Assembly: GCA_001724025.1 (NCBI GenBank)
Contig: MEDJ01000019.1
Location: 94,359 to 158,358, forward strand
Direction: 5' to 3'
DNA: 64,000 bases
Source: Acidobacteria bacterium SCN 69-37
GTDB lineage: Bacteria > Acidobacteriota > Vicinamibacteria > Vicinamibacterales > SCN-69-37
The position numbers were made by a program, and so were the translations under genes. Below are positions 10,018 to 27,948 of the stretch, one piece after another (the first letter of the stretch is position 1; each line of letters starts with the position of its first letter). Below the pieces are notes generated by a model. The model saw only the letters and a list, made by a program, of their open reading frames with translations. It ran no database searches and was not told the DNA's origin.

Positions 10018-10243
10018 TGAAGATCATCCCGTCCTTCACCTTGACCGACCCGCCGGGCGAGAGGATGCCCTCCGGCTTGTTGCCGTGACCCCGGGTGTAC
10101 GTCACGGCGTACGTGATCTCCGGGTGCTGAGCGTAGTCAGGGACCTCCAGAGTGACGACCTCCGCGTAAGTGATCTCCTCCTTCGGCCACTCGTGCGGCG
10201 TGCCTTCCACAATGATCGTGACTGTCTTCTTGTCGGCTGCCAT
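9992..10243 (-). CDS. Multiubiquitin-type single beta-grasp (Ubl) protein
   Basis: KKTVTIIVEGTPHEW...VTYTRGHGNKPEGILSPGGSVKVKDGMIFNVSETGQS. Start set at ATG 10243, which follows AAGGGAGAA. The upstream ATG at 10270 would lie inside the operator. Confidence 0.7.
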   Translation of the reverse strand: MAADKKTVTIIVEGTPHEWPKEEITYAEVVTLEVPDYAQHPEITYAVTYTRGHGNKPEGILSPGGSVKVKDGMIFNVSETGQS

Positions 10244-10268
10244 GGGCTGTTCTCCCTTGAGATCCACC

Positions 10269-10315
10269 ATCGCATTTTTGCGATGTCTTTGTCAACGCAA
10301 TTTTGCGATATTCAG
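10269..10315 (-). promoter_or_regulatory. Promoter/operator element, copy A (twin of 26210-26255)
   Basis: Minus strand reads CTGAATATCGCAAAATTGCG-TTGACA-AAGAC-ATCGCAAAAATGCGAT. It contains two palindromes (CGCAA-AA-TTGCG and ATCGCA-AAAA-TGCGAT) around a TTGACA -35 box. It ends 26 nt before the Ubl start codon. Confidence 0.55.
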
Positions 10316-10405: not shown

Positions 10406-11539
10406 TTAGTTAAAGGCGGTGAGCACAGCACGCTCGGCTTCGGCTGGCGGGATTCTCTCCTGCTCGAGCATCCATGGCCCTGCCACGACCGCGTTCAAAG
10501 CCTCTCGCTCGACATCGGTCAGATGCGAGTGGCGGGCGGATGCGTCTCGTTGACCCGGTAACGCAAGATGCCTCCATCGACACCAGGCGGTGTGGTCCAT
10601 CAGCAGGCTTCGGACTTGCGGAAAGCTTGATCGGAGCCCCGAGAGAATGCCGTACCCGGCTTCATCGCAATCACCCCAATAGACGATCTGAGTCGACGCC
10701 ATCCAACGGCACGCCGGGAGTATCGATGCCGCCTTGCCTGACCCAAAGATGGCTAACGTGCGAGGGATCTCGGGCAGGCACAGAAACACGTCCCGATTCT
10801 CGACTACGAGTACACGCTCCGGGACCCATGAGATATTCGCAAAACTTGGCGCCGGCACGGAGCAATCATCGACTGGCCAGCCGACGCGTTCCCGAAGCCG
10901 CTGATCCAAGAAGCGAAAGCGAACCGGCGCCGGATCTGCCAAAAGGTGAAAGCGCTCGGCGAACGTCGCGCCCTCTACGTTGACGCGATCGCCCAGCACC
11001 ACATCGAGCAGCTCGCGAAGAATCCCGGCGTGTTCTTCAACGAACTTCGTCCCAGCTGGCAGCGGTATCTGGCGCGCGAAACACCGTGGCGTTGGATTGG
11101 CATCAAAGTATGCGCAGACAGCAACCAGAGCTGGCCACTCTTCAAGGTAGTCAACGATACGGTGCGCTCTCGCGCGCACCCATGGCTCCAGCGCCGGACA
11201 CGACTCCCGCGCTCTACGAACCGCGTCGTGGAACGCTTCAAACTCGCGCGAGCGGCCCAAAGCCGCCGCCATGTCATCGGCTGACCCAAATGTGATTCGC
11301 ATCGGCCAGCGTTGACGTCCCCACTTGCGCGTTTGAATTTCCTGCCATTCGATTTGCCATTCATGATGGGTCGCCGCCAACGCCTCGATGTCGCGCTTCA
11401 ATTCCGCAAAGTCGGCGGTGGTCCGGGGACGGCCGAACGGAATCTGCAGAGGAAACAGACTCTCGCCAGCTGCCTCCGCGCGCAGGACAGCTGGCCACCT
11501 GCTTAGCGCTCCTTCGAGAATATCTTCTGGCTTTAGCAT
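10406..11539 (-). CDS. jetD: Wadjet JetD (DUF3322 + Toprim/DUF2220 nuclease subunit)
   Basis: Toprim-like VLVVENRDVF and YWGDCDEAGYGIL. Last gene of the jetABCD order. Confidence 0.85.
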   Translation of the reverse strand: MLKPEDILEGALSRWPAVLRAEAAGESLFPLQIPFGRPRTTADFAELKRDIEALAATHHEWQIEWQEIQTRKWGRQRWPMRITFGSADDMAAALGRSREFEAFHDAVRRARESCPALEPWVRARAHRIVDYLEEWPALVAVCAYFDANPTPRCFARQIPLPAGTKFVEEHAGILRELLDVVLGDRVNVEGATFAERFHLLADPAPVRFRFLDQRLRERVGWPVDDCSVPAPSFANISWVPERVLVVENRDVFLCLPEIPRTLAIFGSGKAASILPACRWMASTQIVYWGDCDEAGYGILSGLRSSFPQVRSLLMDHTAWCRWRHLALPGQRDASARHSHLTDVEREALNAVVAGPWMLEQERIPPAEAERAVLTAFN

Positions 11540-11556
11540 GCAGACCTTGCGGGCCC

Positions 11557-14500
11557 TTAGGCAGGAGACGCTGGCGATGGCGGGGACTGCAACGCTTCTG
11601 ACTGCAGGCCGTTGGCTTCAGGTCCAGCCTCAACTTGCTCCCGAGTCAGCGCAATCAGCCGCGAACTGTTCCCTGACGGGTTCGAAGCCAAGTGAATCGT
11701 GCGAACAAACGGCACGGCGAGCTTCGCTTTCGCGTCGAATGGTCCGACGATGAGCAGCTGGAATCCAAGCTGAGAGAACAGCTGCATCGCGCGAGTGGAA
11801 TTCGATTCGTCCGTGCGCGAGAACGCTTCATCAATAACCACGAGGCGGAAGTTGGGAGCGTCCTGAGCAGCCGTGGACAGACCGTACTGCGCGGACAAAG
11901 CCGATGCGAGAATCGTGAAGGCGAGCTTCGCCTTTTGTCCTCCAGATTTGCCCGTCGTCGCGGCGTAGTAGTTGACCTCGACGTCGTCCGACCTACGCAA
12001 CTCTCGGACGCCAGCGGCAAACCATGTACGAACGTCCGTCACGCGTTGCGTCCCCTCAGGATCGCGTTGGAACTGTTCCAGGAGCAGGCGGACACGCTCG
12101 AAGATTCGCAGGCGCTCATCCGGTGCCGGCGCGATGCCATGTTCAAAACAGTCGCGCAAAGACCGGCGAAACTCAGCGACCTCATGTCCAGGGCGGCTCA
12201 CCAACCGCAGTTGGACGTATGTGTCGTCGGCGTAATCGATACCGCGTAGAGCCTCATTGATCTCCTCTATTCGGCCCTCGATCGCCTCCTGATGCTCCTC
12301 AAGACGGCGATTGAGCATCAACAGGTCACCTACGAGGTTTTCGTTCAGGTAGTGTTCGAACCGTTCCCTATGACGCGGTAGGTCTTCCTCCTCGATGCGA
12401 TGAAGTACGGCGGCGAAACTGTCGGCGTAGGCGCGGCCCACTTCAAGCGTTTGGCGGAAGTCAGGAAACTGACCTAGGAATTCGCTCATGCCCGCGACCA
12501 TCTTCTCGACGGCTTCGTTCACTCGACGCTGTTCATTGCTGATGCGCCCCTGCAGGCTCTGATGGGCGGAATGTGTGAGCTGATCGGCGTTCTCGAGTGT
12601 GAGGGGAGGCAGGCCTGCGGTGATATCGGCAAAGGCCGCCTCCAACCCGTCGTGATCGAAGCCGCTCAAGTCAGCAAGTTGCTGCTCACGGTCGGAGGTG
12701 CGACGTTGACAAGCTTCCAGCCGGTCGCGCACACGTCCGAGTTCCCCGTCGCGTTCACGCAGGTCATCCTCCCCGGCCTGGATGGCAGTATCAATATTCC
12801 GCAACCGTTCCTGGAGAGCTCGAAGTTCTTTCGAGCTCCGCTCTAAGAGGTCTTGCTCGGTCCGTAACCGCATGACCTCGTGGAGCCAGTGCTCAGGATC
12901 TATCTCAATAAAATCACGGATCGCCAACAGCTCGCGGGCGGCGCTCGCACGTTCCCGCGCTGCGCCCGCGCTCCGACCTGCCGCTGTGGCGGCGTTGGCT
13001 TCGGCTAGGGCTCGTTCTTCCGCTTCGCGAATCTGAAGGCGGAGGGCGGCGATCTTGCGGTCCGTCGACCAGCCGAGAATTCTGGCACTGTAATCGTCGA
13101 CGCGCCTGCCATCATCCTTGACATGCCGAGTGCCTTCACGAATTAGGCCCTCGCGCGTGAGACCGCGGTCCACGCCTTCGAGTTCCACAATTGACGCGCA
13201 ACATCGATGATTAAATCGGCGCACTAGCTCATTCGCCACCCATAGATGCAGCGGATGGTCTATCCGAAATTCAAGCCGCCCCGGCACGCGATCGTTCGAC
13301 AAGCTCGGTGGTCCGACATGTTGATCCGGCACACGATGAAAGGTGAGACGCAGGCCGAGCAGCGTGGAGTTCACGAACTGGGCCGCCGGCCTGTACAAAT
13401 GTTCAGGGACCAAGAGGGACAACCCAAAGCCGCGAAGTAGGCGTTCAATCGCGCCGGTCCAATCCTCGTACGTGTTTCGAACCTCTATCAGCTCACCCGC
13501 GAAAGGCATCGCCTCAGTGCCCACCCCGACTACCTGCGCGATGCGGGCACGAACTGCCAGAAACTCTCGAGGAATATTCACGCGATGGCGTTCGACACTT
13601 TCGAGTTCGGCGGCCTTTTCAACGCGTACCTCAAGTGCCAATTCCTGAGCGTGTCGTCTGGCGGCACGCAGCTCGTCCGCCTCGCTCGCCGCGACGCTTT
13701 CCACGCGCTCGCGTTCCTCCCATCCAACGCGAGCACCGACGAAAGCTGCGGCGTCAGCCAATGAAGAAATCGCGGCAAGCAGCTGCGCCGCAGGTTCGAC
13801 ACGCGTGCGGCGATGCTGCGCGTTCAGTCGCGCTTGTTCGGCGTGGTGCAGTTCGCGCTCGATGGCTTGGAGGCGCGGCCCAACGTCAGTCTGTGCGATA
13901 GCGGCATTGACATCGTCGCGTTCACGTCGGTGGTCGGCTAGACGCGAAGCGACCATTGCGCGCGCGGCCTCTGACGATGCGACCACGGTCGCGAGTTCAA
14001 TGGCATGGGCTCGAAGCAGTGCCAAGTGGCGGCTCGCGAAGTAGGGGATTGCAAGCTCCTGCAGCTGTCTCCAGACCTCGATCCGCTGCTCACCGTCGGA
14101 GATGCGACGACCGCGTTCGGCTACGGGACCGAGTAGGGCAATCTGACGTTCAGCGCGCTCGATCGCTGCCCAGCAATCGAGGAGCGTCCTGTAATGGGGC
14201 TGGACGGTATCGCGGATAAACGAGAATGTGTCAGCGGCCGGCAACATGAACTGCCGAACGAATGCGTCGATGTCGCTGACCTCCTTCATGCCGATCGCCC
14301 GGTTGAACACTTCAAGCGCCTTGTCGCCTGGAATATGCAGCAGACTGCGCATCCTTTCCGCGTAGGCGGCGAAGCTGTCCTCGACCTGCCAACCATTACG
14401 GCGGGCCGCCCGTCGGATTTCACTCGTGTTGGTATGTCCTTCGATCAGGTCGCTCAAACTTCGGCGACCTTGCGCCACCGCGTAAACCTCGCGAACCTGC

Positions 14501-14940
14501 TCTTCGTGCTCCCAAAGGACCTGTGCAAGCGTCGCTGAAAGCTGACGCTGACCGTCCGTGAACACCGCCGCGATTGCGCTGAGGGCCCCGGCCTCGCGAA
14601 GATGCTGCGTCGTAGGAGCAGTTGAATCGACGGTGCTGGAGCTCGCCCAAGCGCCTCGAACATACGAACGCCGCGTGCGATCGCGCCCGCCTGGGCGACG
14701 ACCGTCGCCGGACGCATCGTTGTAGTTCAGGATCCGGGGTGGTACGAGCAACGTTCGTAACGCATCGATGGCGGTGGACTTTCCTGAGCCATTGTCGCCG
14801 ACGAGCAAAGCCCAGCCACCACGCGGCTCAAGCGTCTGCGCTTGGCCATGGAAGGTCCCCCAATTCCACAGTTCCAGCCGCTCCAGTCGAAAGCCGGACT
14901 CCATGTGGGGACGAGTGTCCTCAAACTCCTCGTTCGACAT
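11557..14940 (-). CDS. jetC: Wadjet JetC (SMC/MukB-like ATPase)
   Basis: 1127 aa. N-terminal FRLERLELWNWGTFHG...LLVGDNGSGKST, a long coiled-coil middle, and C-terminal KLAFTILASAL...LVVIDEAF (signature motif and Walker B). An alternative start at ATG 14904 would remove the 20-nt overlap with jetB. Confidence 0.85.
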   Translation of the reverse strand: MSNEEFEDTRPHMESGFRLERLELWNWGTFHGQAQTLEPRGGWALLVGDNGSGKSTAIDALRTLLVPPRILNYNDASGDGRRPGGRDRTRRSYVRGAWASSSTVDSTAPTTQHLREAGALSAIAAVFTDGQRQLSATLAQVLWEHEEQVREVYAVAQGRRSLSDLIEGHTNTSEIRRAARRNGWQVEDSFAAYAERMRSLLHIPGDKALEVFNRAIGMKEVSDIDAFVRQFMLPAADTFSFIRDTVQPHYRTLLDCWAAIERAERQIALLGPVAERGRRISDGEQRIEVWRQLQELAIPYFASRHLALLRAHAIELATVVASSEAARAMVASRLADHRRERDDVNAAIAQTDVGPRLQAIERELHHAEQARLNAQHRRTRVEPAAQLLAAISSLADAAAFVGARVGWEERERVESVAASEADELRAARRHAQELALEVRVEKAAELESVERHRVNIPREFLAVRARIAQVVGVGTEAMPFAGELIEVRNTYEDWTGAIERLLRGFGLSLLVPEHLYRPAAQFVNSTLLGLRLTFHRVPDQHVGPPSLSNDRVPGRLEFRIDHPLHLWVANELVRRFNHRCCASIVELEGVDRGLTREGLIREGTRHVKDDGRRVDDYSARILGWSTDRKIAALRLQIREAEERALAEANAATAAGRSAGAARERASAARELLAIRDFIEIDPEHWLHEVMRLRTEQDLLERSSKELRALQERLRNIDTAIQAGEDDLRERDGELGRVRDRLEACQRRTSDREQQLADLSGFDHDGLEAAFADITAGLPPLTLENADQLTHSAHQSLQGRISNEQRRVNEAVEKMVAGMSEFLGQFPDFRQTLEVGRAYADSFAAVLHRIEEEDLPRHRERFEHYLNENLVGDLLMLNRRLEEHQEAIEGRIEEINEALRGIDYADDTYVQLRLVSRPGHEVAEFRRSLRDCFEHGIAPAPDERLRIFERVRLLLEQFQRDPEGTQRVTDVRTWFAAGVRELRRSDDVEVNYYAATTGKSGGQKAKLAFTILASALSAQYGLSTAAQDAPNFRLVVIDEAFSRTDESNSTRAMQLFSQLGFQLLIVGPFDAKAKLAVPFVRTIHLASNPSGNSSRLIALTREQVEAGPEANGLQSEALQSPPSPASPA

Positions 14941-15499
14941 GATTCGTGAGCCGGCTTCTCACTTCCTCCAGTTCCGCGGGGCCGAAACGAGCTTTCAGGA
15001 TTCGCATTACCTCGAAGGTCTCTGCCTCCGGGGGTCCAAAGGCTCTCAGAAACGCCAACTCCTCGAGGCGGCCGATGGCAGTATCGATTCTCCTGATATC
15101 TCGAATCTGGTTATTCGTTTCACGCACGAACTGGCTGACCAGCTCACGCAGTTGCTGCCGCGTCAGAACCAGCCTAGTTGAGTCTCCGGCGGACGCATCG
15201 AAACGGGCCAGTTCTTCGCGCAAGCAGACCAGGAGCAGAGTAGCCGTGTATCCGAGTGACTGTCGGCGGCCGATTCGCGGCACCGACTCCCCACCCTCGA
15301 CTTCGATTTGGCGCAAGAATGCATAGCCCTCAGCTTCATCGACTACGACCTCCTGCCCAATCTGCCGAAAGTAGTGCGCGATTGCGTCACGCTCTCCTCG
15401 CAGCGCCTCCCACAGCGACTCATCTTCTCGGTAGATTGGTTCGAGTAGTAGTCGGGCCAAGACAAACGAGCGCGACGCGAACAGTGAGTGTGTATCCAT
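14921..15499 (-). CDS. jetB: Wadjet JetB (DUF4194, kleisin-associated)
   Basis: 192 aa, located between jetA and jetC. Sequence LLLEPIYREDESLWEALRGERDAIAHYFRQIG...YTATLLLVCLRE is typical of DUF4194. Confidence 0.8.
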   Translation of the reverse strand: MDTHSLFASRSFVLARLLLEPIYREDESLWEALRGERDAIAHYFRQIGQEVVVDEAEGYAFLRQIEVEGGESVPRIGRRQSLGYTATLLLVCLREELARFDASAGDSTRLVLTRQQLRELVSQFVRETNNQIRDIRRIDTAIGRLEELAFLRAFGPPEAETFEVMRILKARFGPAELEEVRSRLTNHVERGV

Positions 15500-15507
15500 G
15501 AGTAGCC

Positions 15508-16968
15508 CTACTGCGCACGTGTAAACAGGACTTCAGGCACCCGCCACAGCTCGTCCAAACCGGCTCCAGTCACGATCTGCACCTCGGCAAACTGGTCACC
15601 CGGGACGTAGTGTTGCGCATCCTGCATGGCGACGACGAGATAGCCCACAACTTCCAGGATGCCTTCGCGCGGTGGGAATCGTTGGAGAACCTGCGACAGC
15701 AGAACGGACTCTGTGGCTACGAGGCATGAACGCACTTGCTCGCGAAGCCTGGTCAGATTCAAATCCACCAACGCACGAAAGCGGTTCACCATTTCCCAAT
15801 CCAGTCCCTGAGCGGCAAATGTGAGGTCGTCTGTAACCTGACCCGCTGCGTCGGGCTGCCAGAACGGTCGACTGAACGTGGTAAACGCTTCCGGCGGCCC
15901 AGCAAGATTGAAGAAATCATCCTCAGGCGGCGGCGAAGCGCGACAGACGAGCGCTAACCGCTGCGTCTCTCGTATTAACTCACGAAGACGCCTATCCTCG
16001 CCTGTGGCTGCACTCTCAAGCGCTCGTCGCAACGTCGCCGCCATTCGCTCGTTCGAGCGCACGACCCGCTCTCCTTCGACCAGCAGTCGGCTTGAGAGTC
16101 GGTCGAGGAGCCGATTGGCTCGTAACCCTTCGTCGATCGCGTCCATCCGGTACACTTGACGCGTCAACTCTCGCCATCGTTGTTGCCGTTCGGGCGACGA
16201 CAGCAAGTTCCAGAACGCGTAGAAGCTTTGACCTTGAGACGAATCCTTCAGCGCGGCGTGAGTGTCAAGAAGCTGACCGACAATGCGGCCCTTTGTGGCC
16301 CCAGGCTTGGTCTGAGCCTCCGCTAGTGCCCGCGCGACGTCCTTGAAGTTCTCCTCAAGCTGCCGAAAGTCGCCGGCGAGTCCGCGTGCCAGATCAAGGG
16401 CGTTCGCGAATCGTTCAGTCAACTGAACGGCCGTATAGGCCTCGGCAGTGTGAGTCTGTTCGATGGAGTCGATCTGCGCCTGTAGGGCAGCCTGCTGCGC
16501 GCGTAAAGCTGCCACGCGTCGGCTTGCATCGGGCGTCGAGAACAAGACGATCTCTTCGAGTTGACGGAAGATCAGCTCCAGTCGAGATTCGGCACCGACA
16601 AACGGCCGCGCCTGTAAGTCCTCTAACCACTGCATCGCGCGCTCTGCGGCCGTGGTGAGCTCGAAGACAGGTTCCTCTGCTTCATTGCTATATAGCTTCT
16701 TGAGGAGCAGTTGCTCGTTGCCGCACCAGGCGGCCAGGTATTCGGCTGCGGTCTGAGCGTACGCACCTGGCCTTTGAGCACGAGCCTCGTCGAGAAAATT
16801 GTCCAAGCGAGCGCGGAGGTGCGATTCCGGGACGGCTATTGCGTGATGCTCTTTGAAGGCTCGGTGGAGGAAGGTTAGCGTGAGCGCAGCATTCGGACTC
16901 CGCAGCAGCCGGACCGCGGCATGGTCCATCAGTCTTTGCGTCTCGATAAAATCCCACGCTGTGTTCAT
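15508..16968 (-). CDS. jetA: Wadjet JetA (DUF3375, kleisin-like)
   Basis: 486 aa. N-terminal AAVRLLRSPNAALTLTFLHRAFKE... fits the DUF3375 pattern. It lies at the head of the jetABCD order. Confidence 0.85.
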   Translation of the reverse strand: MNTAWDFIETQRLMDHAAVRLLRSPNAALTLTFLHRAFKEHHAIAVPESHLRARLDNFLDEARAQRPGAYAQTAAEYLAAWCGNEQLLLKKLYSNEAEEPVFELTTAAERAMQWLEDLQARPFVGAESRLELIFRQLEEIVLFSTPDASRRVAALRAQQAALQAQIDSIEQTHTAEAYTAVQLTERFANALDLARGLAGDFRQLEENFKDVARALAEAQTKPGATKGRIVGQLLDTHAALKDSSQGQSFYAFWNLLSSPERQQRWRELTRQVYRMDAIDEGLRANRLLDRLSSRLLVEGERVVRSNERMAATLRRALESAATGEDRRLRELIRETQRLALVCRASPPPEDDFFNLAGPPEAFTTFSRPFWQPDAAGQVTDDLTFAAQGLDWEMVNRFRALVDLNLTRLREQVRSCLVATESVLLSQVLQRFPPREGILEVVGYLVVAMQDAQHYVPGDQFAEVQIVTGAGLDELWRVPEVLFTRAQ

Positions 16969-16986
16969 AGAGCCACGTTGAAACAG

Positions 16987-19900: not shown

Positions 19901-20064
19901 GGCACGTACCCATAGAGCGCGAACGTGATCGCGTCGAGGATGCTCGACTTTCCGGCTCCGGTCGGGCCCGAGATCGCAAAGAGGGAGAGCGCGCCGAAGT
20001 CGAGTACATCCTGTGCGTCGCGAAAGCACGTGAACCCCTCGACGTAAAGGCTGCTGGGGCGCAT
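16987..20064 (-). CDS. sbcC: Rad50/SbcC-family ATPase with zinc hook
   Basis: N-terminal FAISGPTGAGKSS, a ~700-aa coiled coil with a central CPVCEH hook, and C-terminal LSGGETFLASLSLAL...LFIDEGFGTLD. Confidence 0.85.
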   Translation of the reverse strand: MRPSSLYVEGFTCFRDAQDVLDFGALSLFAISGPTGAGKSSILDAITFALYGYVPRLGKQGISDAVSLGRDRMAVRLEFVVGDRQFRVGRALRRKKAASVILEEITNGNTRLLADKVRDADEQIAALTGLQYETFIQTVLLPQGEFDRFLHSDPGERGKILRELLKLDVYERMRLQAEQESRQQQQQLRLMRERLDQDYADSTSENLEAARGKFDEASGQEALAKTASETAAQQLQEIQARFVQSTELASNRARLKQLDSQREQVSADRDRLDRARRAALVIPRLETLDDANARVAGAQRELRQAHTQTESAQSDLGRQSTSHEHAQRELTAIAGLRKRIQALDELRGVIERQKKVANEAQSTNSSIATVTKDHKAAVAEQRKAESTSTAAERELADARTARKTIGYDADRYRALQEVVADAIRGREFHHRLTAAKRQATVAANKATEAELAVKDAAASVEKHKVAFDRAHEQVIKAEAALQQARNANHAAALRPTLEQGEPCPVCEHVIERLPRRLRAPELEDREDAVEQAKRAESKANRALEQSRETAAGAVSQAKERREVAEERTADLQEIEKGIAKASKKVAGVVAASQRAVILSAEVFEAISTEGDSCAALKQQFEAAGERINRADLARQQARHRQDQAATAVQHLLARTEELRSRLSQLEEEGSQITSRIVGVTKSSDPAGEREQLVKQVANLETSERKAQEALEAAKRSLERAIATERGAEQRMTERQAEADRANAEASKALVDSGFADPTVTRAAVLPAEAQQRLDASIRGYETERHQVEVRVLELENALAGRYVTEQDHREAGQQAQRAAQSHHATLETLTRSRQDVERLVVQVERAVALRKEKAALEGRSALSEQLARDLKNDGFQRYLLEEAFRGLVDGASVRMKEWTNRYTLQWDDGAFYAIDHDNGGERRRAETLSGGETFLASLSLALQLSEEILRTAGAVQIDSLFIDEGFGTLDVEALEIVTDAIESLRSGGRMVGIITHIRDLTERLPGCIEVEKGLGQSRWQVARVG

Positions 20065-20066
20065 CG

Positions 20067-21224
20067 CTATTCCTTCACGACCAGGTCACGGAGGTCATCG
20101 AATGCGGTCAGGAGTTGCGCCTCTGCCTCGCGCCGGTGTTCCTTTCGGTGATATGCCGCGTAGAGCTCCCGAGGGGGAGCGCCGGGTGCTGGACGGTCAA
20201 TGTCCGGTGCCTGCTCGTCTCGTGGCAGGTCCGCGTTCACCACGACTGCATTTGGCAGCAGTTGGCGCACTTTGCGAGCAATATCCGGATCACGGGCGGG
20301 CAGTAGCACCTTTACACGGAGGTGACCACTCGACCGATGACGTTCAGCGTCCCTTTCAATCTCCTCCAGCGTCCCCGACACATCGTTCAGCGGCACGCCA
20401 CCCTGATAAGGAATCGCCTCGATTCGGACAGGCAGGTGCGATGCGGCCTCGAGCAGGAGAAACTGCTTGATCTCGCCCACCTCACCGAAGTCGAGCTGGA
20501 GTGGGGAACCTGCGTAGAACGTCGGCGCAGCTGCTTCGACTTTCTGGTGCCGGTGAATATGACCGAGGGCTACATACTGCGCCGTGGCTGGAATCGCCTG
20601 AGGCATCATTGCCCACTCCTCACCGATGTGGACCCTTCGTTCCGATCCCGCAAGAATCGCATTCGCCAAGTGTGTGTGCGCGACTATCAGCCTGATGGCG
20701 TCAGGTCGGAATCCTCCAGCGAGGTGCTCCAGAATGCGCTGCATGCCATCCGCGTACTCTTGAGCCGCAATGCTGGCATCGGCGGTCACGTCAATGGCCG
20801 ATACGAGTCGGCCGACTGATGCAAACGGAACGGCGGCAATCTGTGCACGTTCTCCACTAGACGACTCGATCTCGATCAGTCCTCCGTCTTCACGGCGCCG
20901 CGGCAGGCCCACCGATCGAACCCCCACCAACTCCGCCAATGTGCCCCAGGCCTCCATCCGGGCAGGGTGGTCGTGATTGCCCGCGATCACTACACTGTGT
21001 ACGCCAGACGATCCAATCCGGCGGAAGAAGCTGAACACCATCCGCTCGGCTTCAGCCGACGGTCCGGCGCTATCAAACACATCGCCGGACATCAACAGCA
21101 GATCTACGCGCTCGCGAACCAGGAAATCTGCAAGATTGTCGAGAACAGCACCAAGTTCGGGAAGCCGATTCACGCTCTTCCAGAGCCGGCCAGCATGCCA
21201 ATCGCTCGTATGAACAATCCGCAC
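20067..21224 (-). CDS. sbcD: Mre11/SbcD-family nuclease
   Basis: Calcineurin-like motifs VHTSDWHAG, SGDVFD, IAGNHD and GHIH. GTG start at 21224, 2 nt after the herA stop, preferred over the upstream ATG at 21299. Confidence 0.85.
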   Translation of the reverse strand: MRIVHTSDWHAGRLWKSVNRLPELGAVLDNLADFLVRERVDLLLMSGDVFDSAGPSAEAERMVFSFFRRIGSSGVHSVVIAGNHDHPARMEAWGTLAELVGVRSVGLPRRREDGGLIEIESSSGERAQIAAVPFASVGRLVSAIDVTADASIAAQEYADGMQRILEHLAGGFRPDAIRLIVAHTHLANAILAGSERRVHIGEEWAMMPQAIPATAQYVALGHIHRHQKVEAAAPTFYAGSPLQLDFGEVGEIKQFLLLEAASHLPVRIEAIPYQGGVPLNDVSGTLEEIERDAERHRSSGHLRVKVLLPARDPDIARKVRQLLPNAVVVNADLPRDEQAPDIDRPAPGAPPRELYAAYHRKEHRREAEAQLLTAFDDLRDLVVKE

Positions 21225-21226
21225 GG

Positions 21227-22951
21227 CTATCCCATCCTCTCGAACGGATCGTGCGCATCGACGGTTGCGGCGACCTCGCTTTTCCTGGTCGCCCAGCACG
21301 GAAACGGGAACCGCAACAGGATCGCCATCGGGATCTCCGGCTGCGACACAATCATCGAACCGGGTTGAAGCATCGCGGCCCGTTTGCGCCCGACCGTGGT
21401 GAGAAAGCCATACTCGCCCCGGTCCGCTTCGGCTGCGTCCAGTCTTCCCACTACCTTAATGGCGGCGTTCGCCACGATTCTGCGCTCGACCTCGCTCGCC
21501 GTCTGCTGGGCGCCCAGAAGAGACACGCCGAGCGAGCGGCCACGTTCCGCGATGTCAAGGAGCACATCTCGAATAGGGCTCCACCCTTCGCGTGGCGCGT
21601 ACTTGTTCAACTCGTCGAGCACGACGAACACAAGGGGCTTCGCGCCGCCCTGCTGTTCCTTCTGCTCCATCATTCGCTTGAGCAGTACGCCCACGACAAA
21701 CATCTGTGCCGTCGAGTGCAGGGTGTGAATGTCTACGACCGTCACCTGTTGCCCGCTCCAATCGATCTGTTTACCGCGAGCGGAGGAGTCACCACTCACA
21801 AGATGACCCATGTGCTCGGCCGCCGCGTGGAGGCGCCGCCTAAACGCGTCAAGCGTTCCGCCCGCGACTGGAGCGCCTGCCATCATCGCGTCTAGCGCCG
21901 GTGTGTCGAAGAGCTCCACCAGGTCATCAAAACTGCAGATCCTGGTACCGCTGAGCGTTATCGCGGCCTCGGTTTCGTCACCTTCACGCGAGGCTCGTTC
22001 GAGTTCTCGTTCCACCCGGGTGATTACGAAATGGAACTGGGCCCGAACGTCATGAGCGCCGGCGAACGCAAAGCGCAGGAACCGATTGCGAGCAAACTCA
22101 CGGATCGTCCAGACGTACGGGTTCACGCCGTTTTGTCGACTGCCAGTGTCCGGGACCGGCGTCGAGCTGCCTCGACGGGCGGGCGCGAAGAACGACACGC
22201 TCTGAAAGGGCCCTGACGGAAGTCCAAGCGCTTCATACTCAGTCTGGTCTTCCGGTCGCAGACGCACATTCGCCTTGTCGAGCCACAGGAGATCCTCGCC
22301 CTTGACGTTGAAGATCAAGGCCTTCGCATTCGCCGCATCGATCCCGAGCGCTCCTGAATGAAAGAGCGAGTAGATCAGGAACGTCGCATAGCTCGTCTTC
22401 GTCGCGACGCCGGACACTCCGCTAATAGAAGCGTGCGCACCCCGCGTGCCGTCCAAGAACTCCAAGTTCGCGAAGATCGATTCGCCGGCTCGGGTCAGTC
22501 CGATCGGCACCGTGTGCTCCATCTGATCGAAGTAGAGCGCCCGCCGAAACGCTTCACCACGAACAACCGCTACCGCGTCACCGGGGGCGGGTGGGACAAA
22601 GATTTCTGGGTCGACGCGAGTCACCTGTACGTGGGCCGCGTACGACACTTCCACCGGGAGCGTTCCAGCCGCGACTCTGAAGGCGTCGGTGTCGAACTGG
22701 TTGCCCTCGAATTTCTTCCGGACGATGTCAACGATTCCATAGAAGGAGACGCGCGTGCCGTCCGGGGTCACCGTTTCGACGACGATAAGGTCGTCGAGCT
22801 GGACCATCTGACCCTCACCAACACCGATCCAAAACTCGAGCGGGGTCGCATCCATTGAGCCAAGGACAAGACCGACTGGCTTGATTAGGCGTTCAGAACT
22901 GTCTACGCGGCCCGGTTGAGGCGACGGTACCGCAATTGAAGCATCAGGCAC
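21227..22951 (-). CDS. herA: HerA-like (DUF87/FtsK-HerA superfamily) ATPase
   Basis: N-terminal barrel-like VGLVLGSMDATPLEFWIGV, Walker B VFVVLDELNKYAP, and DIAERGRSLGVSLLGAQQTASEV. The P-loop is atypical (GVSGVATKTS). The GTG start at 22951 (overlapping the nurA stop) was chosen and is uncertain. Confidence 0.75.
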   Translation of the reverse strand: MPDASIAVPSPQPGRVDSSERLIKPVGLVLGSMDATPLEFWIGVGEGQMVQLDDLIVVETVTPDGTRVSFYGIVDIVRKKFEGNQFDTDAFRVAAGTLPVEVSYAAHVQVTRVDPEIFVPPAPGDAVAVVRGEAFRRALYFDQMEHTVPIGLTRAGESIFANLEFLDGTRGAHASISGVSGVATKTSYATFLIYSLFHSGALGIDAANAKALIFNVKGEDLLWLDKANVRLRPEDQTEYEALGLPSGPFQSVSFFAPARRGSSTPVPDTGSRQNGVNPYVWTIREFARNRFLRFAFAGAHDVRAQFHFVITRVERELERASREGDETEAAITLSGTRICSFDDLVELFDTPALDAMMAGAPVAGGTLDAFRRRLHAAAEHMGHLVSGDSSARGKQIDWSGQQVTVVDIHTLHSTAQMFVVGVLLKRMMEQKEQQGGAKPLVFVVLDELNKYAPREGWSPIRDVLLDIAERGRSLGVSLLGAQQTASEVERRIVANAAIKVVGRLDAAEADRGEYGFLTTVGRKRAAMLQPGSMIVSQPEIPMAILLRFPFPCWATRKSEVAATVDAHDPFERMG

Positions 22952-23927
22952 GAACGGTCTCCCGCAGAATAAGTTCGGCAAGACGACGTCGAATGACGCG
23001 CGGATCGCCGAGCTGATGACGAAGATGCATTTCGAGCGCACCGATAGGTAGCAGGTTCTGTGGAGCCCGCGGATCACGACCGCGATTTGGCACAAACCGT
23101 GGCAGGACAACCGTCACCGCATCCGCCAACGCGCGCGCGGTCTCGAAACCAACAACGTCGGCAATTTCGAGCCGCGCAAGACCGGTTAGATCCCCGTCGA
23201 TCGGGAGCCGCAATGCCAGGCGCACGAACCACGAGAATCGTCCGAATCGCGCGCCTCCTCGAATATGAAACACTGGGGAACGAGCGCCAAGCGGCAGGTT
23301 TGCCAGCGTTCGGAGTTGAACATTCCCTACGTAAATCTTGAAGAATCGCTTGACGAACCCAAGGGCCTGACCACGCGACGCCTCTCCAAACGTCAGGGGG
23401 CCATCTGCAACGACGAGAGTGGCTCCATCCGCCGCGCATGTGCGAGCCAGTAGCGCCTCCGCTGCCCGCATCGCTTCGAACACCACCAGCGGCGGACCAT
23501 CTGCGTCGTCACGAGGTGAGCTTGAAGGCTGGTAAGTCAGCGCTGCGCCGAGATCGAGCGGCCGAGGAAGACATTCGCCGCTACCGAGGACCGCAATGTG
23601 GCCGATTTCTTCTTGACCGCACGCTGCTCGCCCATCCGCAACCCGGACCGCTCCGACACCGTAGCTTCCGATTACGCCGTGAATCAGGCGGTCATCGCGG
23701 CGAACCAGAAGTCGTGCCTCTACCCGACGAACTCCATCTATAAAGACAATCGTCGCTGGGAGGTGGCCAGTCACCGGCAAGACTGGCGTCCACGCGTCGG
23801 ACTGCTGTTCAACTGAAAGATCAACTTCTTCCGCTGGCTCAAGAGAGCCTGCCTCGATTGACAATTCGCCGGAGTACTCCGCTTCCCAAGGGTCCAGGCG
23901 CACGTCAAAGGTTCCGAAGAGCCCCAT
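22944..23927 (-). CDS. nurA: NurA-like nuclease
   Basis: Acidic motifs IVFIDGVRR and LVVADGPLTF, and position immediately upstream of herA. Start ATG 23927 follows AAGGGAG. The call rests on weak motifs plus context. Confidence 0.6.
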   Translation of the reverse strand: MGLFGTFDVRLDPWEAEYSGELSIEAGSLEPAEEVDLSVEQQSDAWTPVLPVTGHLPATIVFIDGVRRVEARLLVRRDDRLIHGVIGSYGVGAVRVADGRAACGQEEIGHIAVLGSGECLPRPLDLGAALTYQPSSSPRDDADGPPLVVFEAMRAAEALLARTCAADGATLVVADGPLTFGEASRGQALGFVKRFFKIYVGNVQLRTLANLPLGARSPVFHIRGGARFGRFSWFVRLALRLPIDGDLTGLARLEIADVVGFETARALADAVTVVLPRFVPNRGRDPRAPQNLLPIGALEMHLRHQLGDPRVIRRRLAELILRETVRA

Positions 23928-23944
23928 CAACGCAACTCGCTCCC

Positions 23945-24214
23945 TTACGCAGCTGTTCCCACAATGCGAATTCCAGCGCGGACTTGCCCGGCGCGCCCGC
24001 CGAGATCCACGACGACATGCCAATGGCCAATCGAAGGCGGACGCATTTGGACAGGCGACTTCGTCGCCCACCCTCCGTAGTACGTGAAACGGCCACCGTT
24101 TCGATACGATGAGAATGCGAGATCATCCAGCAGCATGACATTCGCTTGACCATCGAGCGTTACGACGACGACGTTGTCGGGGCCACCATTGAAATCCGTG
24201 TGAAGAAAGTTCAT
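23945..24214 (-). CDS. DUF1883-like small protein
   Basis: 89 aa. Sequence ANVMLLDDLAFSSYRNGGRFTYYGGWATKSPVQMRPPSIGHWHVVVD matches my recollection of DUF1883. Its ATG overlaps the ImmA stop (ATGA). Confidence 0.55.
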   Translation of the reverse strand: MNFLHTDFNGGPDNVVVVTLDGQANVMLLDDLAFSSYRNGGRFTYYGGWATKSPVQMRPPSIGHWHVVVDLGGRAGQVRAGIRIVGTAA

Positions 24215-25137
24215 TCCTCACCTCCTTCGAACCCAGTGATCTGAATACGGCGATGCGGAATCACGACTCGAGTTTCGGTGACTCGTCGCTCCTCCACGAA
24301 GAGTGTCAGGAGATAGTGCTGATTGTTGAATGACCACGCACGCACTTCATGGCGATCACTCCTGGCATCAACCAAACCGAGACGAAATTCGGCAACCTTT
24401 CCGCCCTTCTTGTAGCTCGCATGGCTATCGACGGCCACACGAAGTGACTCGGCGGAACTGTCTGGAAACAGTCTGGAGAACCGTTCGGACGGAACGAAGT
24501 GGCGCCATCGATGTTCCTGGTCATCGGGTTGCTGCGCCCACAGCGGCGTGCTGACCAGCATCGCCATCGCCAGATCTGGCCCTTGTTCGACGTAACGCCT
24601 TAGCGTCGTAGTCAGGGATGCTCGGTAACGCTTCGCGAGTGACTTGACGGATTCGATCGTCGGCACCACATCCCGTGCGTCCTTTGTGAATCGGTCGCCG
24701 AGGAACAACAGCCGACCAGCCGCGTAGTTGGCCTCGGCCTCCAGATCCGCCTGATAGGCGGGATCGAGCGTCTGAGCGGTGTCCCCGAAGAAGAACGGTT
24801 TGTGCCATGGGAGCAGCCGATGCCCAGTCTCGTGGCATGAGGCCCACGGATGCTTGATTCTCGGTAACTCCTGATCGATACAGATGCGGTTCTCGTCAAA
24901 GAGAAGCACGGCTTGCAGACGGACCTTGTTGATGATGTCGACGAGTTTGTGGCCCTGGATGCGAAGCTTGTGTTTGGCGCGATCAAGAAAACCTGGATTG
25001 GCCAGGTCGTAGTAATCGCGATGGAGTTGAACGTGCTGGAGCAGCTGTTCCACGGAGAGCGGAGGCTCTGTGAGACCGGCGTCCCGCAGCGTCGCCGCAG
25101 CAATCCGTTCGATTTCCGCGCGTGTCGCTCGGTCCAT
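24211..25137 (-). CDS. ImmA/IrrE-family zinc metallopeptidase
   Basis: HExxH motif in WASCHETGHRLLPWH, with a downstream EANYAAGRLLF segment typical of the DUF955/ImmA fold. It follows an XRE gene. Confidence 0.8.
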   Translation of the reverse strand: MDRATRAEIERIAAATLRDAGLTEPPLSVEQLLQHVQLHRDYYDLANPGFLDRAKHKLRIQGHKLVDIINKVRLQAVLLFDENRICIDQELPRIKHPWASCHETGHRLLPWHKPFFFGDTAQTLDPAYQADLEAEANYAAGRLLFLGDRFTKDARDVVPTIESVKSLAKRYRASLTTTLRRYVEQGPDLAMAMLVSTPLWAQQPDDQEHRWRHFVPSERFSRLFPDSSAESLRVAVDSHASYKKGGKVAEFRLGLVDARSDRHEVRAWSFNNQHYLLTLFVEERRVTETRVVIPHRRIQITGFEGGEE

Positions 25138-25154
25138 AGCTACTCACTGCGCTG

Positions 25155-25820
25155 TTAGCGATCTGATCGAAGAAACCCAACAAACTCATCCAACACGCGC
25201 TGTTCTTCCTTCGTCAACTTTGAAAAGGAGTTTGACTGTGCCGCGAACCGTGCGGCGTGTTGTCGCAAGTCTTCTGGCACCTCACGGATGGCGCCGGCGA
25301 GAACTGCCAGCTTTCGGTCAGGCACCCCGAAGAACTCACTGAGGCGGTGCAGTGTCAACGGTGATGGACGATACGCGGGACTTCGCTCGAGAGCCACGAG
25401 CTCAGTGCGATCGATCTTGGTCTTCTCCGCAAGGTCATCGATCGACAATCCGCGAGACCGGCGAAGCATCTGGACGACGCGGTGAAATGCCTCGCGAATC
25501 TCCAATTCCTCGGGCTCGCGGGCGGTCATGACGACCGTGAGCTTCTGATTGAGCGCTGTCGCAATCCGTTCCAGCACCGAAAGAGACCGCCCCTCGTAGT
25601 CGGCGTCTTCGAGACGACTGATCACGGACTGCGTTGTCCCGATGAGTTCGGCTAGTTGCTGCTGTGAGAGGCCCGCTGCATTCCTCATCTCGTGAATCAA
25701 GCGGGCCACTTCAGCATTGACTCGTTCTTCTTGAAGCGCAGCCTTGCGCTCTGGATCATCCTTCACGTACCGACCGTGAAGGATCCTGACCGCATCCCGC
25801 GTCTTGTCCTTCTTGGTCAT
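25155..25820 (-). CDS. XRE-family regulator with two HTH modules
   Basis: HTH 1 is LSQQQLAELIGTTQSVISRLE and HTH 2 is LSIDDLAEKTKIDRTELVALE. It lies between the toxin-like gene and the ImmA gene. Confidence 0.8.
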   Translation of the reverse strand: MTKKDKTRDAVRILHGRYVKDDPERKAALQEERVNAEVARLIHEMRNAAGLSQQQLAELIGTTQSVISRLEDADYEGRSLSVLERIATALNQKLTVVMTAREPEELEIREAFHRVVQMLRRSRGLSIDDLAEKTKIDRTELVALERSPAYRPSPLTLHRLSEFFGVPDRKLAVLAGAIREVPEDLRQHAARFAAQSNSFSKLTKEEQRVLDEFVGFLRSDR

Positions 25821-25823
25821 CGT

Positions 25824-26186
25824 TCACTCCTCATAGGTATGTCGCTTGGGGTTTTGAATGAACCGAGTTCTGTTACCGACCGCGCGATCGATCTCAGCCG
25901 GCGGAACGACGTCCTCCTTGGTACATCCGTGGCTCAAGATCGCGCGACCTTCATGGAAGAAATAGAGAATCCGGTGATGCACGTTGCCATGTCGCACCCG
26001 CAGTTCATAGATGTCATCGCGCAAATAATCCGCTTCTGGACGTCTCAATTCGTGTCCGCGTTCCGCGAGCCGTTCGATGCGAACGGTACACTTGTCGCGA
26101 GCCTTGACTTGGAGAGCGTCCATCCACGCCAGTAGCGGCGATGAACCATCCTCGGCGGCAAAGATCACAACCTCCGTCTGGGGCAC
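25824..26186 (-). CDS. Gp49/HigB-like (RelE/ParE superfamily) toxin-like protein
   Basis: 120 aa. Sequence LRVRHGNVHHRILYFFHEGRAILSHGCTKE is typical of the phage Gp49 (DUF891) family. GTG start. Confidence 0.7.
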   Translation of the reverse strand: MPQTEVVIFAAEDGSSPLLAWMDALQVKARDKCTVRIERLAERGHELRRPEADYLRDDIYELRVRHGNVHHRILYFFHEGRAILSHGCTKEDVVPPAEIDRAVGNRTRFIQNPKRHTYEE

Positions 26187-26209
26187 TCGGGCATTCCTCG
26201 CTGCAAACT

Positions 26210-26255
26210 ATCGCATTTTTGCTATGTGTTGTCAACTCAATTTTGCGATACTGAG
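26210..26255 (-). promoter_or_regulatory. Promoter/operator element, copy B (twin of 10269-10315)
   Basis: Minus strand reads CTCAGTATCGCAAAATTGAG-TTGACA-ACAC-ATAGCAAAAATGCGAT, then AGT completes a GATAGT -10-like hexamer 17 nt after TTGACA. It ends 24 nt before the GTG start of the toxin-like gene. Confidence 0.55.
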
Positions 26256-26516: not shown

Positions 26517-26897
26517 ATGTCACCGCGCGGAAAGCCCGCTGGTAGCCGACGTCTATCCGCAGCGGACTCTTCGAGAACGCCCATCGAAAGGGGCGGCTCC
26601 CGCAGGGCCGACAGCGCTACGCGTCGTTGGCGTCGGGATACCCGGCCGAAGTTGTTTCGCGCTGCGGTCTCCGTGACGAAGGGAATCCGATGGACACGCC
26701 CGCTGATCGAGGCCACCCTCGAGGAGCTGTACGTCGACGACCACTTCGAGGAGTTGCTCGGGCGGGCTCCAGGCGACCTTCGGTCCGCTCAGTACGCCCA
26801 GGCGATCGCCGTGGCTTTGATACTCCGACACAGCTGGCACCCGGACGATCTCGCCTGCATGCTCAAACGTCTCAAGCTTCGCGTCGGTGACGCGTGA
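26517..26897 (+). CDS. Hypothetical protein, paralogue of 46730-47173
   Basis: WTRPLIEATLEELYVDDHFEELLG...SAQYAQAIAVALILRHSWHPDDL aligns with WTRRLVNTLLDELHVTDEFDRLVG...SQYPRLIAIALLLRHSWSLYDL. The true start is uncertain. Confidence 0.4.
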   Translation: MSPRGKPAGSRRLSAADSSRTPIERGGSRRADSATRRWRRDTRPKLFRAAVSVTKGIRWTRPLIEATLEELYVDDHFEELLGRAPGDLRSAQYAQAIAVALILRHSWHPDDLACMLKRLKLRVGDA

Positions 26898-27573: not shown

Positions 27574-27594
27574 GTACTGCTAGATCAATTCTAG
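27574..27594. promoter_or_regulatory. Second GTACTGCTAG copy fused to palindrome CTAGA-TCAAT-TCTAG in the divergent promoter region
   Basis: Read directly from the sequence. It lies between the start of the 27225-27563 gene (minus strand) and virB2 (plus strand). Confidence 0.4.
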
Positions 27595-27624
27595 TTCCGA
27601 CGACACCAGCGCGGGAGGTTCTCG

Positions 27625-27918
27625 ATGCCCTGCGACCACGTAGTCAGAGTGATTCGACGCGTGAGTGCGATGGTGTTCACGGCTCTCCTTCTCCTGCCCA
27701 CACTGGCATTCGCCCAGTCTCCTTGGGAGCGCGCCGCGAGCAATCTCGAACGCACGTTCACAGGCCCCTTGGCGCGCTCGCTCGCGCTCGTGGCCATCGT
27801 CATCGGTGGACTGATGTTCATGTTCGGAGAGGGCGGCGCGAAACGCCAGATCTCCGGCATCGTGTTCGGCGGCGGACTCGCGCTCTTCGCGGCGCAGTTC
27901 CTCGTCTGGTTGTTCTGA
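27625..27918 (+). CDS. virB2: VirB2/TrbC-family pilin
   Basis: Signal peptide ...LPTLAFAQSPW, then two hydrophobic helices (LALVAIVIGGLMFMFGEG and GIVFGGGLALFAAQFLVWLF). GGGAGG RBS. Confidence 0.75.
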   Translation: MPCDHVVRVIRRVSAMVFTALLLLPTLAFAQSPWERAASNLERTFTGPLARSLALVAIVIGGLMFMFGEGGAKRQISGIVFGGGLALFAAQFLVWLF

Positions 27919-27948
27919 AACGTCCGTAAGGTTTGCGGAGGTGCGGGC

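Follow-up and report, generated by a model that had tools for sequence, protein, structure and literature searches.

We analyzed a stretch of 64,000 nucleotides (nt) from Acidobacteria bacterium SCN 69-37 (contig MEDJ01000019.1, positions 94,359 to 158,358), which is called the window below. On its minus strand lies a block of 12 genes, made up of a regulatory head (a toxin-like gene, an XRE-family repressor gene and an M78 peptidase gene), a DUF1883 gene, a NurA-HerA-SbcD-SbcC module for the resection of DNA ends, and a JetABCD (Wadjet) module. We think, with a probability of roughly 0.55, that this block is a modular island of cargo genes, probably under shared regulation, on an integrative conjugative element, and that it consists of three separable modules and is not one 12-gene machine. 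The observations that carry this reading are the identities of the genes, their modularity, the duplication and conservation of an operator, the fold of the peptidase in a structural model, and the variability of the cargo.

Genes of the block and the duplicated promoter/operator cassette

The 12 open reading frames (ORFs) run head-to-tail from 26186 to 10406, and the junctions between them measure +3, +17, -4, +17, -8, +2, +2, +18, +8, -20 and +17 nt. This layout, which had been given in an initial annotation of the window, was reproduced exactly, and all of the gene identities proposed there hold in view of the matches to Pfam, PADLOC, PDB and NCBIfam and of the sequence motifs. The genes are as follows (aa, amino acids; HTH, helix-turn-helix).

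25824..26186, minus: Gp49/HigB-like (RelE/ParE-type) toxin-like gene, first gene of the head; 120 aa, GTG start; PF05973, 1.1e-15
25155..25820, minus: XRE-family repressor with two HTH domains; 221 aa; PF01381 (HTH_3), 8.6e-20, residues 42-94 and 119-171
24211..25137, minus: M78 (ImmA/IrrE/CapP-type) zinc metallopeptidase; 308 aa; PADLOC capP, 1.3e-15
23945..24214, minus: DUF1883 small beta-rich protein; 89 aa; PF08980, 2.5e-23; PDB 2b1y, 1.7e-8
22944..23927, minus: NurA nuclease; 327 aa; PDB 7f6d_H (D. radiodurans NurA), 2.8e-21; FIDG and ADGPL motifs
21227..22951, minus: HerA hexameric ATPase/translocase; 574 aa, GTG start; PDB 7f6d_B, 1.2e-148
20067..21224, minus: SbcD/Mre11 nuclease; 385 aa; TIGR00619, 170.6 bits against a cut-off of 77.65
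16987..20064, minus: SbcC/Rad50 ATPase; 1025 aa; AAA_23, 6.6e-25, and SbcC_Walker_B
15508..16968, minus: JetA, type I kleisin-like (DUF3375); PF11855, 2.5e-95; PADLOC JetA1, 1.9e-110
14921..15499, minus: JetB (DUF4194, MukE-like); PF13835, 1.6e-34; PADLOC JetB1, 1.6e-48
11557..14940, minus: JetC, SMC-type ATPase; PADLOC JetC1, 6.5e-278; Walker A GDNGSGKST, Walker B VVIDEAF
10406..11539, minus: JetD, Toprim nuclease subunit; DUF3322, 3.9e-39; JetD_C, 5.8e-36; PADLOC JetD1, 1.6e-98

The region from 9.5 to 27.5 kb of the window was scanned for promoters of the sigma-70 consensus and for terminators. On the minus strand a single good sigma-70-like site was found directly 5' of gene 1 (26235..26207, TTGACA-17-GATAGT with an extended TG), and no terminator-like hairpin was found at the gene junctions of the scanned region. 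The scan agrees with the earlier statement that the train has no internal terminator or promoter and that its only promoter lies upstream of the first gene, except for a weak 9/12 promoter match within herA (21909..21882).

The promoter of the head, which reads ATCGCAAAATTGAG-TTGACA-ACAC-ATAGCAAAAATGCGATAGT, contains two 16-bp palindromes of the form ATCGCA-N4-TGCGAT, one over the -35 and the other over the -10. The co-directional array also runs past jetD: after a spacer of 162 nt, five more minus-strand genes follow in the order bubA, bubBD, bubE, a 613-aa gene and a 132-aa gene, giving 17 genes in total. A second copy of the promoter/operator (10309..10266) lies in the jetD-bubA spacer, just beyond the block that had been annotated. 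The parts of the two cassettes, P1 and P2, are listed below.

26207..26249, minus: P1, promoter/operator cassette of the head, found by the promoter scan and a motif search
26249-26234, minus: operator O1 of P1, ATCGCAAAATTGAGTT
26235-26230, minus: -35 of P1, TTGACA
26225-26210, minus: operator O2 of P1, ATAGCAAAAATGCGAT
26212-26207, minus: -10 of P1, GATAGT
10266..10309, minus: P2, cassette copy between the jetD stop and bubA, ATCGCAAAATTGCG-TTGACA-AAGAC-ATCGCAAAAATGCGATGGT
10309-10294, minus: operator O1' of P2
10295-10290, minus: -35 of P2, TTGACA
10284-10269, minus: operator O2' of P2
10271-10266, minus: -10 of P2, GATGGT

The operator motif had four matches in the window, against 0.05 expected by chance. 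Even with three mismatches allowed, the window yielded no further copy, the stretch ahead of the 613-aa gene included. The operators were kept in 18 promoter copies with 16 distinct sequences (14 plus 4 copies; related loci are denoted below by L and a number), whereas the flanks diverged. A cassette of the P1 type was present upstream of every observable head, at 13 other loci, again with diverging flanks; those named with it are L024, L028, L030, L038-L042, L062, L064, L065 and L066. A downstream cassette after the last cargo gene was seen in L028, where it stands after sbcC and before bubA, and in L030, L032 and L037, where it stands after jetD. In L037 (7530-8133) the downstream cassette precedes a gene of the metallo-beta-lactamase fold in place of Bub, and in L030 and L032 a transposase of the IS630 type (DDE_3) lies just after it.

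Because copies of the cassette stand at both ends, the 12-gene block (an eight-gene block in L028) is bracketed by the same promoter. The presence of the near-identical P2 ahead of the Bub operon suggests that one repressor probably controls two transcription units with three defense-type modules; judging from the sequence, both the block and the operon after it are most likely under its control. A shared repressor for Bub is in line with published work, in which 31% of Bub operons were located next to CapH+CapP (PMC11601596). Among what is new here is the duplicated operator, which would tie several modules to one repressor.

Modules of the block and their recurrence in other loci

In the 14 head-bearing loci besides the window, the Gp49 gene was always 5' of the XRE gene. 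With the toxin-like gene immediately upstream and a gap of 3 nt, the pair appears to fit the HigB/Gp49-HigA type of arrangement. The XRE protein, which matched capH of PADLOC (1.5e-15), is a putative CapH/DdrO/ImmR-like partner and HigA-like antitoxin.

The catalytic residues of the M78 peptidase (H102-E103-x-x-H106 and E135) are present. In an alignment of 46 homologues, H102, H106 and E135 were invariant and E103 was nearly so, and the spacing of the Zn ligands is that of CapP (H102/E103/H106/E135 versus H96/E97/H100/E129). We built an AlphaFold model from this 46-sequence alignment of database homologues (predicted local distance difference test, 84.9). The best PDB folds found with Foldseek were those of Deinococcus PprI/IrrE (8sln and 3dte, E 8e-10), and the model also matched a regulator of M. 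tuberculosis and Thauera CapP (7t5t, 3.5e-7), in each case over about 290 columns. As modeled, the peptidase has the three-domain architecture of IrrE/PprI/CapP, namely a peptidase, a linker and a GAF-like domain. There was no Cys in the loop after HExxH, so that the M78 protein has no cysteine-switch loop; its sole conserved Cys is C101, just before H102, which was invariant in six close homologues but not across the 46. The earlier view that the whole unit is under the control of a protease/repressor switch is supported by the conserved operators over the sole strong promoter together with this fold.

We found 193 database relatives of the M78 peptidase, and their contigs put the three-gene core ahead of several cargoes, with M78 proteins 48-86% identical to that of the window. 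The head fronts a type III cyclic oligonucleotide-based antiphage signaling system (CBASS) with Trip13-like AAA, Cap8, HORMA, SMODS and SAVED in L062 (M78 86% identical), and a TIR gene in L063. Insertion sequences (IS) accompany it in L064 and L065, and DUF1883 alone stands behind it in L041 and L066. In L038 and L040 the head and DUF1883 are followed by a different Mre11-like phosphoesterase and an AAA_27 SMC-like ATPase. The joining of the head to two unrelated modules of the Mre11/Rad50 type suggests a specific affinity of the switch for end-processing nucleases. The DUF1883 gene was found behind the head in the clade of the window, in L038-L042 and in L066, and was absent from the CBASS-linked L062; it may be counted either with the head, as an accessory, or with the cargo, as its first gene. 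The order Gp49-XRE-M78-DUF1883 also occurred in five genomes (Terriglobia, Methylomirabilota and Acidiferrales; 69-84% identity) without NurA/HerA. A profile scan of genome contigs with the M78 alignment returned only these five known loci, and neither HerA nor the M78 profile found relatives among the viral contigs of IMG/VR. Taken comprehensively, the head seems to be a portable protease/repressor switch of the IrrE/PprI/CapP type in which DUF1883 is optional.

Some of these loci have further features. The pair in L038 (11687-16449) and L040 (11648-19625) consists of a 421-aa Mre11-like protein and a 1166-aa AAA_27 ATPase, an SbcE/SbcF-like pair outside PADLOC, and in L040 a Sir2+HerA system comes after it. 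L064 (6576-10839) has a head with an 86%-identical M78 peptidase, which is fused to or disrupted by an IS200-type Y1 transposase and lies co-directionally upstream of virB2 and virB3. By analogy with ImmR/ImmA of ICEBs1, some elements might use the switch to regulate their transfer genes as well.

The genes that follow sbcC vary in a similar manner. Thirteen close homologues of the SbcC protein were at least 65% identical to it, after which the identity fell to about 39%. The seam in the window and the loci of this clade are as follows.

16969..16986, minus: sbcC-jetA junction of the window, 18 nt; seam of the resection and Wadjet modules
L029, SbcC 97%: then jetABC, to the contig end
L061, L036 and L037, SbcC 89-92%: then jetA to jetD, after a spacer of 126-131 nt
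L030/L031, L032 and L060, SbcC 67%: then jetABCD; in L030 all 12 genes stand in this order, beside virB2/virB3
L028, SbcC 85%: then bubA-bubBD-bubE directly
L059, SbcC 80%: then a 109-aa gene, GajA and GajB (PADLOC, 3e-70 and 2e-54)

The same head preceded nurA in every contig that reached far enough upstream (L024, L028, L029 and L030). The sbcC-jetA adjacency that had drawn attention in the window is thus seen again in independent contigs from metagenomes, at SbcC identities as low as 67%. On the other hand, the idea of one obligate unit of head, resection genes and jetABCD has to be given up in view of Bub in L028, Gabija in L059, the loci with Jet only (L043-L056) and the heads with other cargo (L038, L040, L062 and L063).

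Between sbcC and jetA, the window and L029 have 18 nt, L030 and L060 have 7 nt, and L036, L037 and L061 have 126-131 nt. The first 15 nt or so past the sbcC stop were common to all copies of the clade, and beyond this point the sequence differed with the cargo. The DUF1883-nurA spacer measured 17, 38 or approximately 155-165 nt, the last in L024 and L028. When remnants of a jetA promoter region were sought in the long sbcC-jetA spacers (L036, L037 and L061) and DUF1883-nurA spacers (L024 and L028), these matched no Jet-only locus and nothing elsewhere. In a neighbor-joining tree of SbcC, the Bub-linked copy stood beside a Jet-linked copy (90% identity) and the Gabija-linked copy in a different subclade, a topology which indicates that the linkage to Jet is old and has been lost or replaced at least twice. 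In two soil metagenomes (L033, 2721-4037, and L034, 3688-5004), sbcC is split at about codon 720 by a transposase of the IS256/Mutator family, which leaves a truncated product of 721 aa (database cluster P0132).

As for the resection module itself, herA overlaps nurA by 8 nt, and NurA and HerA (genes 5 and 6) had no Pfam match. HerA has the Walker A motif GVATKTS and the Walker B motif VVLDE; SbcD has the phosphoesterase motifs DWH, GDVFD, GNHD, AHTH and GHIH; and SbcC has GPTGAGKS, a CPVC zinc hook at residue 503, LSGGE and LFIDEGFG, with a full-length match to TIGR00618 (5e-86) that is nevertheless below the cut-off. PADLOC matches of HerA and SbcC to mad8 and mad3 of MADS, and one of SbcC to LmuB, were set aside as no more than the general resemblance among ATPases.

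A scan for HerA in one genome per GTDB species returned 23 bacterial loci, from Acidobacteriota, Myxococcota, Planctomycetia, Bradymonadales, Chloroflexota and Actinomycetota. The order NurA-HerA-SbcD-SbcC was contiguous in 18 of the 23, and HerA was linked to SbcD/SbcC in 22. These counts contradict the initial annotation, in which the four-gene cluster was regarded as classically archaeal; its statement that bacteria usually carry sbcCD alone fails for these phyla. No head or Jet gene was found within 10 kb of the 23 loci. The NurA of the window was 35-52% identical to the NurA of chromosomal operons, and its HerA was 77% identical to the closest chromosome-type homologues, of which those named belong to Vicinamibacterales. 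It seems that the resection genes of the window are a mobilized copy of a chromosomal end-resection operon of the Acidobacteriota type. Two cyanobacterial plasmids also hold the four genes, without Jet or ImmA. A megablast search of PLSDB plasmids with the whole 15.8-kb block gave no match.

JetD has the Toprim motifs VVENRD and GDCDEAG (E and DxD), and the four jet genes, being contiguous and in canonical order, constitute by all appearances a complete type I Wadjet. A search with JetA found 16 genome loci. In the 14 closest (L043-L056), which hold jetABCD or the part of it retained on the contig, no SbcC, HerA or head was found within 10 kb. One of these, L049, has jetABCD alone adjoining the same virB4-B3-B2 genes, and this position is the same cargo slot of a related element.

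The operon behind P2 and the two genes after it are as follows.

9992-10243, minus: bubA (Multi_ubiq); Pfam, 2.9e-18
8830-10017, minus: bubBD (DUF6791 and ThiF; E2-E1 fusion); Pfam, 3.8e-40 and 3.1e-8
8438-8833, minus: bubE (DUF6527); Pfam, 4.5e-24
6106-8342, minus: gene pair; the 613-aa protein weakly matches anti-phage GapS1 (NCBIfam, 1.2e-7, far below the cut-off), and the 132-aa protein after it has no family match

A type II Bub system (6E/DUF6527) is defined by a ubiquitin-like BubA, an E2-E1 fusion BubBD, and BubE (PMC11601596), and bubA-bubBD-bubE (8438-10243) appears to be a complete operon of this type. The pair of 613-aa and 132-aa genes may be a further defense candidate.

On the plus strand, and divergent from the train, lies a type IV secretion operon with virB2 (27625-27918), virB3 and virB4 (28128-30662). 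The plus-strand backbone extends over about 26.5-50.5 kb and includes homologues of VirB9, VirB10 and VirB6, a coupling protein (39120-41135) and virB11; then come a RepB-type primase and a large serine recombinase (48869-50440), which overlaps tRNA-Ala(GGC) (50403-50478). The G+C content is about 0.60 over approximately 6-50 kb, 0.64-0.69 over the initial 5 kb, and 0.67-0.73 from 51 kb onward. The secretion operon, the recombinase at tRNA-Ala and the G+C profile indicate that an integrative conjugative element carries the block as cargo. A search for a tRNA-Ala direct repeat that would mark the left end of the element found none of 14 nt or longer, and an Rfam scan gave nothing besides the tRNA. 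Two minus-strand ORFs opposite virB2-virB4 (27591-28067, 158 aa, and 28074-30668, 864 aa) were rejected as spurious, because Pfam and the genes called in L030 favor plus-strand virB2, virB3 and virB4; tblastn even finds "homologues" of these spurious ORFs at related loci. A plus-strand ORF of 126 aa (26517-26897), located between the head promoter and virB2, has no family match and is 49% conserved in L030.

The combination of a regulator, Wadjet and HerA-SbcD-SbcC-NurA was also found on a linear plasmid of Streptomyces sp. BB1-1-1 (NZ_CP134205.1, 409.7-428.2 kb). There, six genes in one direction encode an XRE-ImmA fusion (PF06114, 1e-17), a 179-aa protein and a complete type II Wadjet (DUF2397, DUF2398, TIGR02680 and DUF3323/DUF2399). 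Across an intergenic region of 565 nt, a divergent set encodes HerA (49.5% identical), SbcD, SbcC, NurA (29%, 5e-31) and an HA-domain helicase; with this helicase the locus (L067/L070) spans 409.7-430.6 kb. No inverted repeats were found in the ImmA-HerA intergenic region, and no Wadjet was seen near the other actinobacterial resection operons (L015, L017, L023 and L069). The Streptomyces locus resembles the window in having an XRE/M78 regulator, a small gene of no known family, a complete Wadjet and resection genes on a mobile replicon, but it differs in the type of Wadjet, the fused regulator, and the divergent resection operon with its own gene order. Since the Wadjet type, the gene order and the phylum are all different, this locus, although a single case, is the best evidence against a merely inherited linkage, and it makes a functional cooperation with Wadjet plausible, if unproven.

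Proposed mechanism and alternative explanations

From these features we infer the binding of the repressor, the activation of the switch by single-stranded DNA, co-transcription, a role of the resection module in defense rather than repair, and any cooperation between it and Wadjet, as in the following scheme. The XRE repressor would bind the two ATCGCA-N4-TGCGAT operators over the -35 and -10 of its own promoter. Single-stranded DNA arising from DNA damage or infection would activate the M78 peptidase, by analogy with CapP and PprI, and the peptidase would cleave the two-HTH repressor, so that both P1 and P2 would open. P1 would then drive the toxin-like gene and the resection machine, with Wadjet reached by read-through, while P2 would express the Bub operon under the same repressor. 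The resection complex might degrade free DNA ends, such as those of phage genomes, broken DNA and linearized plasmids, and the additional single-stranded DNA produced in this way could exert a positive feedback on the switch. JetABCD would be the occupant of a swappable slot 3' of sbcC, and in the lineage of the window its transcription most likely starts at the head promoter and reads through.

Several points weigh against this reading. The sigma-70 consensus scan may miss internal promoters, because the host is a high-GC, non-model organism. Nearly all relatives are metagenome contigs, many of them sharing descent, so that counts of loci are not counts of independent events. The age of the sbcC-jetA linkage (67% SbcC identity) and its independent recurrence in Streptomyces suggest more than a neutral neighborhood. 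The defense role is argued from context only, because the resection genes look exactly like housekeeping repair genes. In addition, the canonical CapH/CapP pair lies upstream of the regulated operon on the opposite strand and has a repressor with a single HTH (Lau et al. 2022), whereas head and cargo run in the same direction both in the window and in all relatives, and the 221-aa repressor of the head has two HTH domains.

One alternative, which had been put forward in the initial annotation, is that NurA-HerA-SbcD-SbcC is a dedicated finisher for Wadjet, which destroys the linear product of JetABCD without reliance on RecBCD/AddAB of the recipient. JetABCD only linearizes plasmids, and the product was eliminated in vitro by added RecBCD (10.1101/2022.10.04.510915); such cooperation is therefore mechanistically sensible, but the comparative data do not require it. 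That sbcC and jetA adjoin each other in four lineages by sequence (SbcC identities of 97%, 89-92% and, in two of them, 67%), mostly with a junction of 7-18 nt, speaks for a finisher, although these recurrences within the clade may all stem from one fusion event. The Streptomyces plasmid, where type II JetABCD lies divergently at 565 nt from the resection genes, is an independent recurrence. A dedicated finisher would, however, hardly be expected with Bub or Gabija in place of Jet, nor does it agree with the lack of resection genes at the 14 nearest JetABCD loci, with the 22 chromosomal resection operons and two cyanobacterial plasmid copies that have no Jet nearby, or with the different Mre11/Rad50-like pair that stands behind the head without Jet. 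We consequently think that this alternative is unlikely to be correct.

It is equally doubtful that the block is damage-inducible repair cargo like the PprI/DdrO regulon of Deinococcus, which would aid the survival of the host or the element and have defense genes as incidental neighbors. The near-chromosomal character of the module is in its favor, since HerA shares 77% identity with chromosome-type homologues, and the catalytic motifs and lengths of all four resection proteins are retained. HerA gave a weak local match at most with the anti-phage HerA families, and the cyanobacterial plasmid copies have no defense neighbors. In structure the peptidase is matched best by PprI/IrrE, and these proteins control repair genes (PMC10904395). 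Against repair cargo, heads of the same family front CBASS and TIR genes, and the slot after sbcC holds only Wadjet, Gabija or Bub in the contigs seen. The head carries a toxin-like gene, and DUF1883, which accompanies it, is a domain that also occurs in fusion with TIR domains. Some populations have an sbcC inactivated by the insertion of an IS256-family element, a fate seen more typically in dispensable cargo.

There is also a small chance that the resection machine is both a defense effector itself and a partner of Wadjet, with both induced by the switch upon its activation by single-stranded DNA and Bub released by the same repressor. Incoming circular DNA would then be linearized by Wadjet and destroyed by the resection complex, whose single-stranded DNA would act back on the protease. 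If this were true, one damage signal would fire a three-layer immune regulon on a conjugative element. Finally, a chance juxtaposition of 12 unrelated neighbors by mis-assembly is highly improbable and is effectively refuted by independent contigs: although the window and nearly all its relatives are derived from metagenomes and long spurious ORFs do arise in high-GC DNA (for example, the antisense ORF at 28074-30668), the order and junctions are repeated in independent ENA, JGI and Logan assemblies at 67-99% identity, and every protein has a strong family match.

If the regulatory part of our reading, the modular island behind a protease/repressor switch, holds, the window would be a sequence-defined case in which one damage-sensing repressor/protease pair presides over several immune modules by means of duplicated operators. 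Coordinated defense has been proposed for CapH/CapP, without mapping to specific promoters. The analysis also nominates a resection machine for double-strand breaks, of the housekeeping type, as mobile and switch-controlled cargo of a defense island. It offers a testable answer to the question of what finishes the DNA linearized by Wadjet, for which the Streptomyces plasmid is a second independent locus, and it corrects the view of the nurA-herA-mre11-rad50 cluster as an archaeal specialty.

Comparison with known systems

No described defense system of this composition, which had seemed unprecedented from the outset, was found in PADLOC or the literature. Likewise, we found no paper that combines NurA, HerA and Wadjet and no description of NurA-HerA-SbcCD as a defense system, for which PADLOC has no model. 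The module types themselves are of known kinds; the mobile, switch-controlled resection operon and its recurrent yet facultative pairing with Wadjet are new.

The resection proteins are homologous to HerA-NurA and SbcCD of Deinococcus/Thermus and to the archaeal nurA-herA-mre11-rad50 products, and their order is that of the 18 bacterial loci mentioned above. Unlike those bacterial and archaeal operons, the copy in the window is on a conjugative element, behind a protease/repressor/toxin head and DUF1883, and is flanked by defense systems. Its SbcC belongs to a tight clade (at least 65% identity) which is only about 38% identical to chromosomal SbcC.

The Wadjet module is like other type I systems (JetABCD/MksBEFG/EptABCD) in its four subunits, canonical order, jetB/jetC overlap and intact ATPase and Toprim motifs, and its JetA is 67-83% identical to that of stand-alone systems in Acidobacteriota and other phyla. 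In contrast to these stand-alone systems, jetA of the window starts 18 nt after sbcC and has no recognizable promoter of its own. Wadjet acts on circles of up to about 100 kb, and linear plasmids evade it. The system of the window is carried by an element whose excised circle would be well under this limit, whereas the replicon of the Streptomyces locus is linear, a topology reported to evade Wadjet.

The Bub operon immediately downstream of the block is like the type II Bub operons reported beside CapH+CapP. The difference is that the regulator genes of the window are 16 kb upstream with eight cargo genes between, and that the link is formed only by the duplicated promoter/operator.

CapH/CapP respond to single-stranded DNA and DNA damage and are associated with CBASS, DISARM and Wadjet. 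The head resembles CapH/CapP, IrrE/PprI-DdrO and ImmA-ImmR in that an XRE-type repressor adjoins an M78 HExxH peptidase with a shared predicted fold, and it resembles the CapH/CapP switches further in its palindromic operators within the promoter and in having relatives ahead of CBASS and Bub operons. It differs from CapP proteins with a cysteine switch in lacking that loop, a feature that is present in 33% of CBASS-linked CapP and is not obligatory for the family (Lau et al. 2022). It also differs from CapH/CapP in that a Gp49/HigB-like toxin gene always comes first in heads of the window type, and in that the operator/promoter cassette is duplicated, with the second copy placed ahead of a separate operon.

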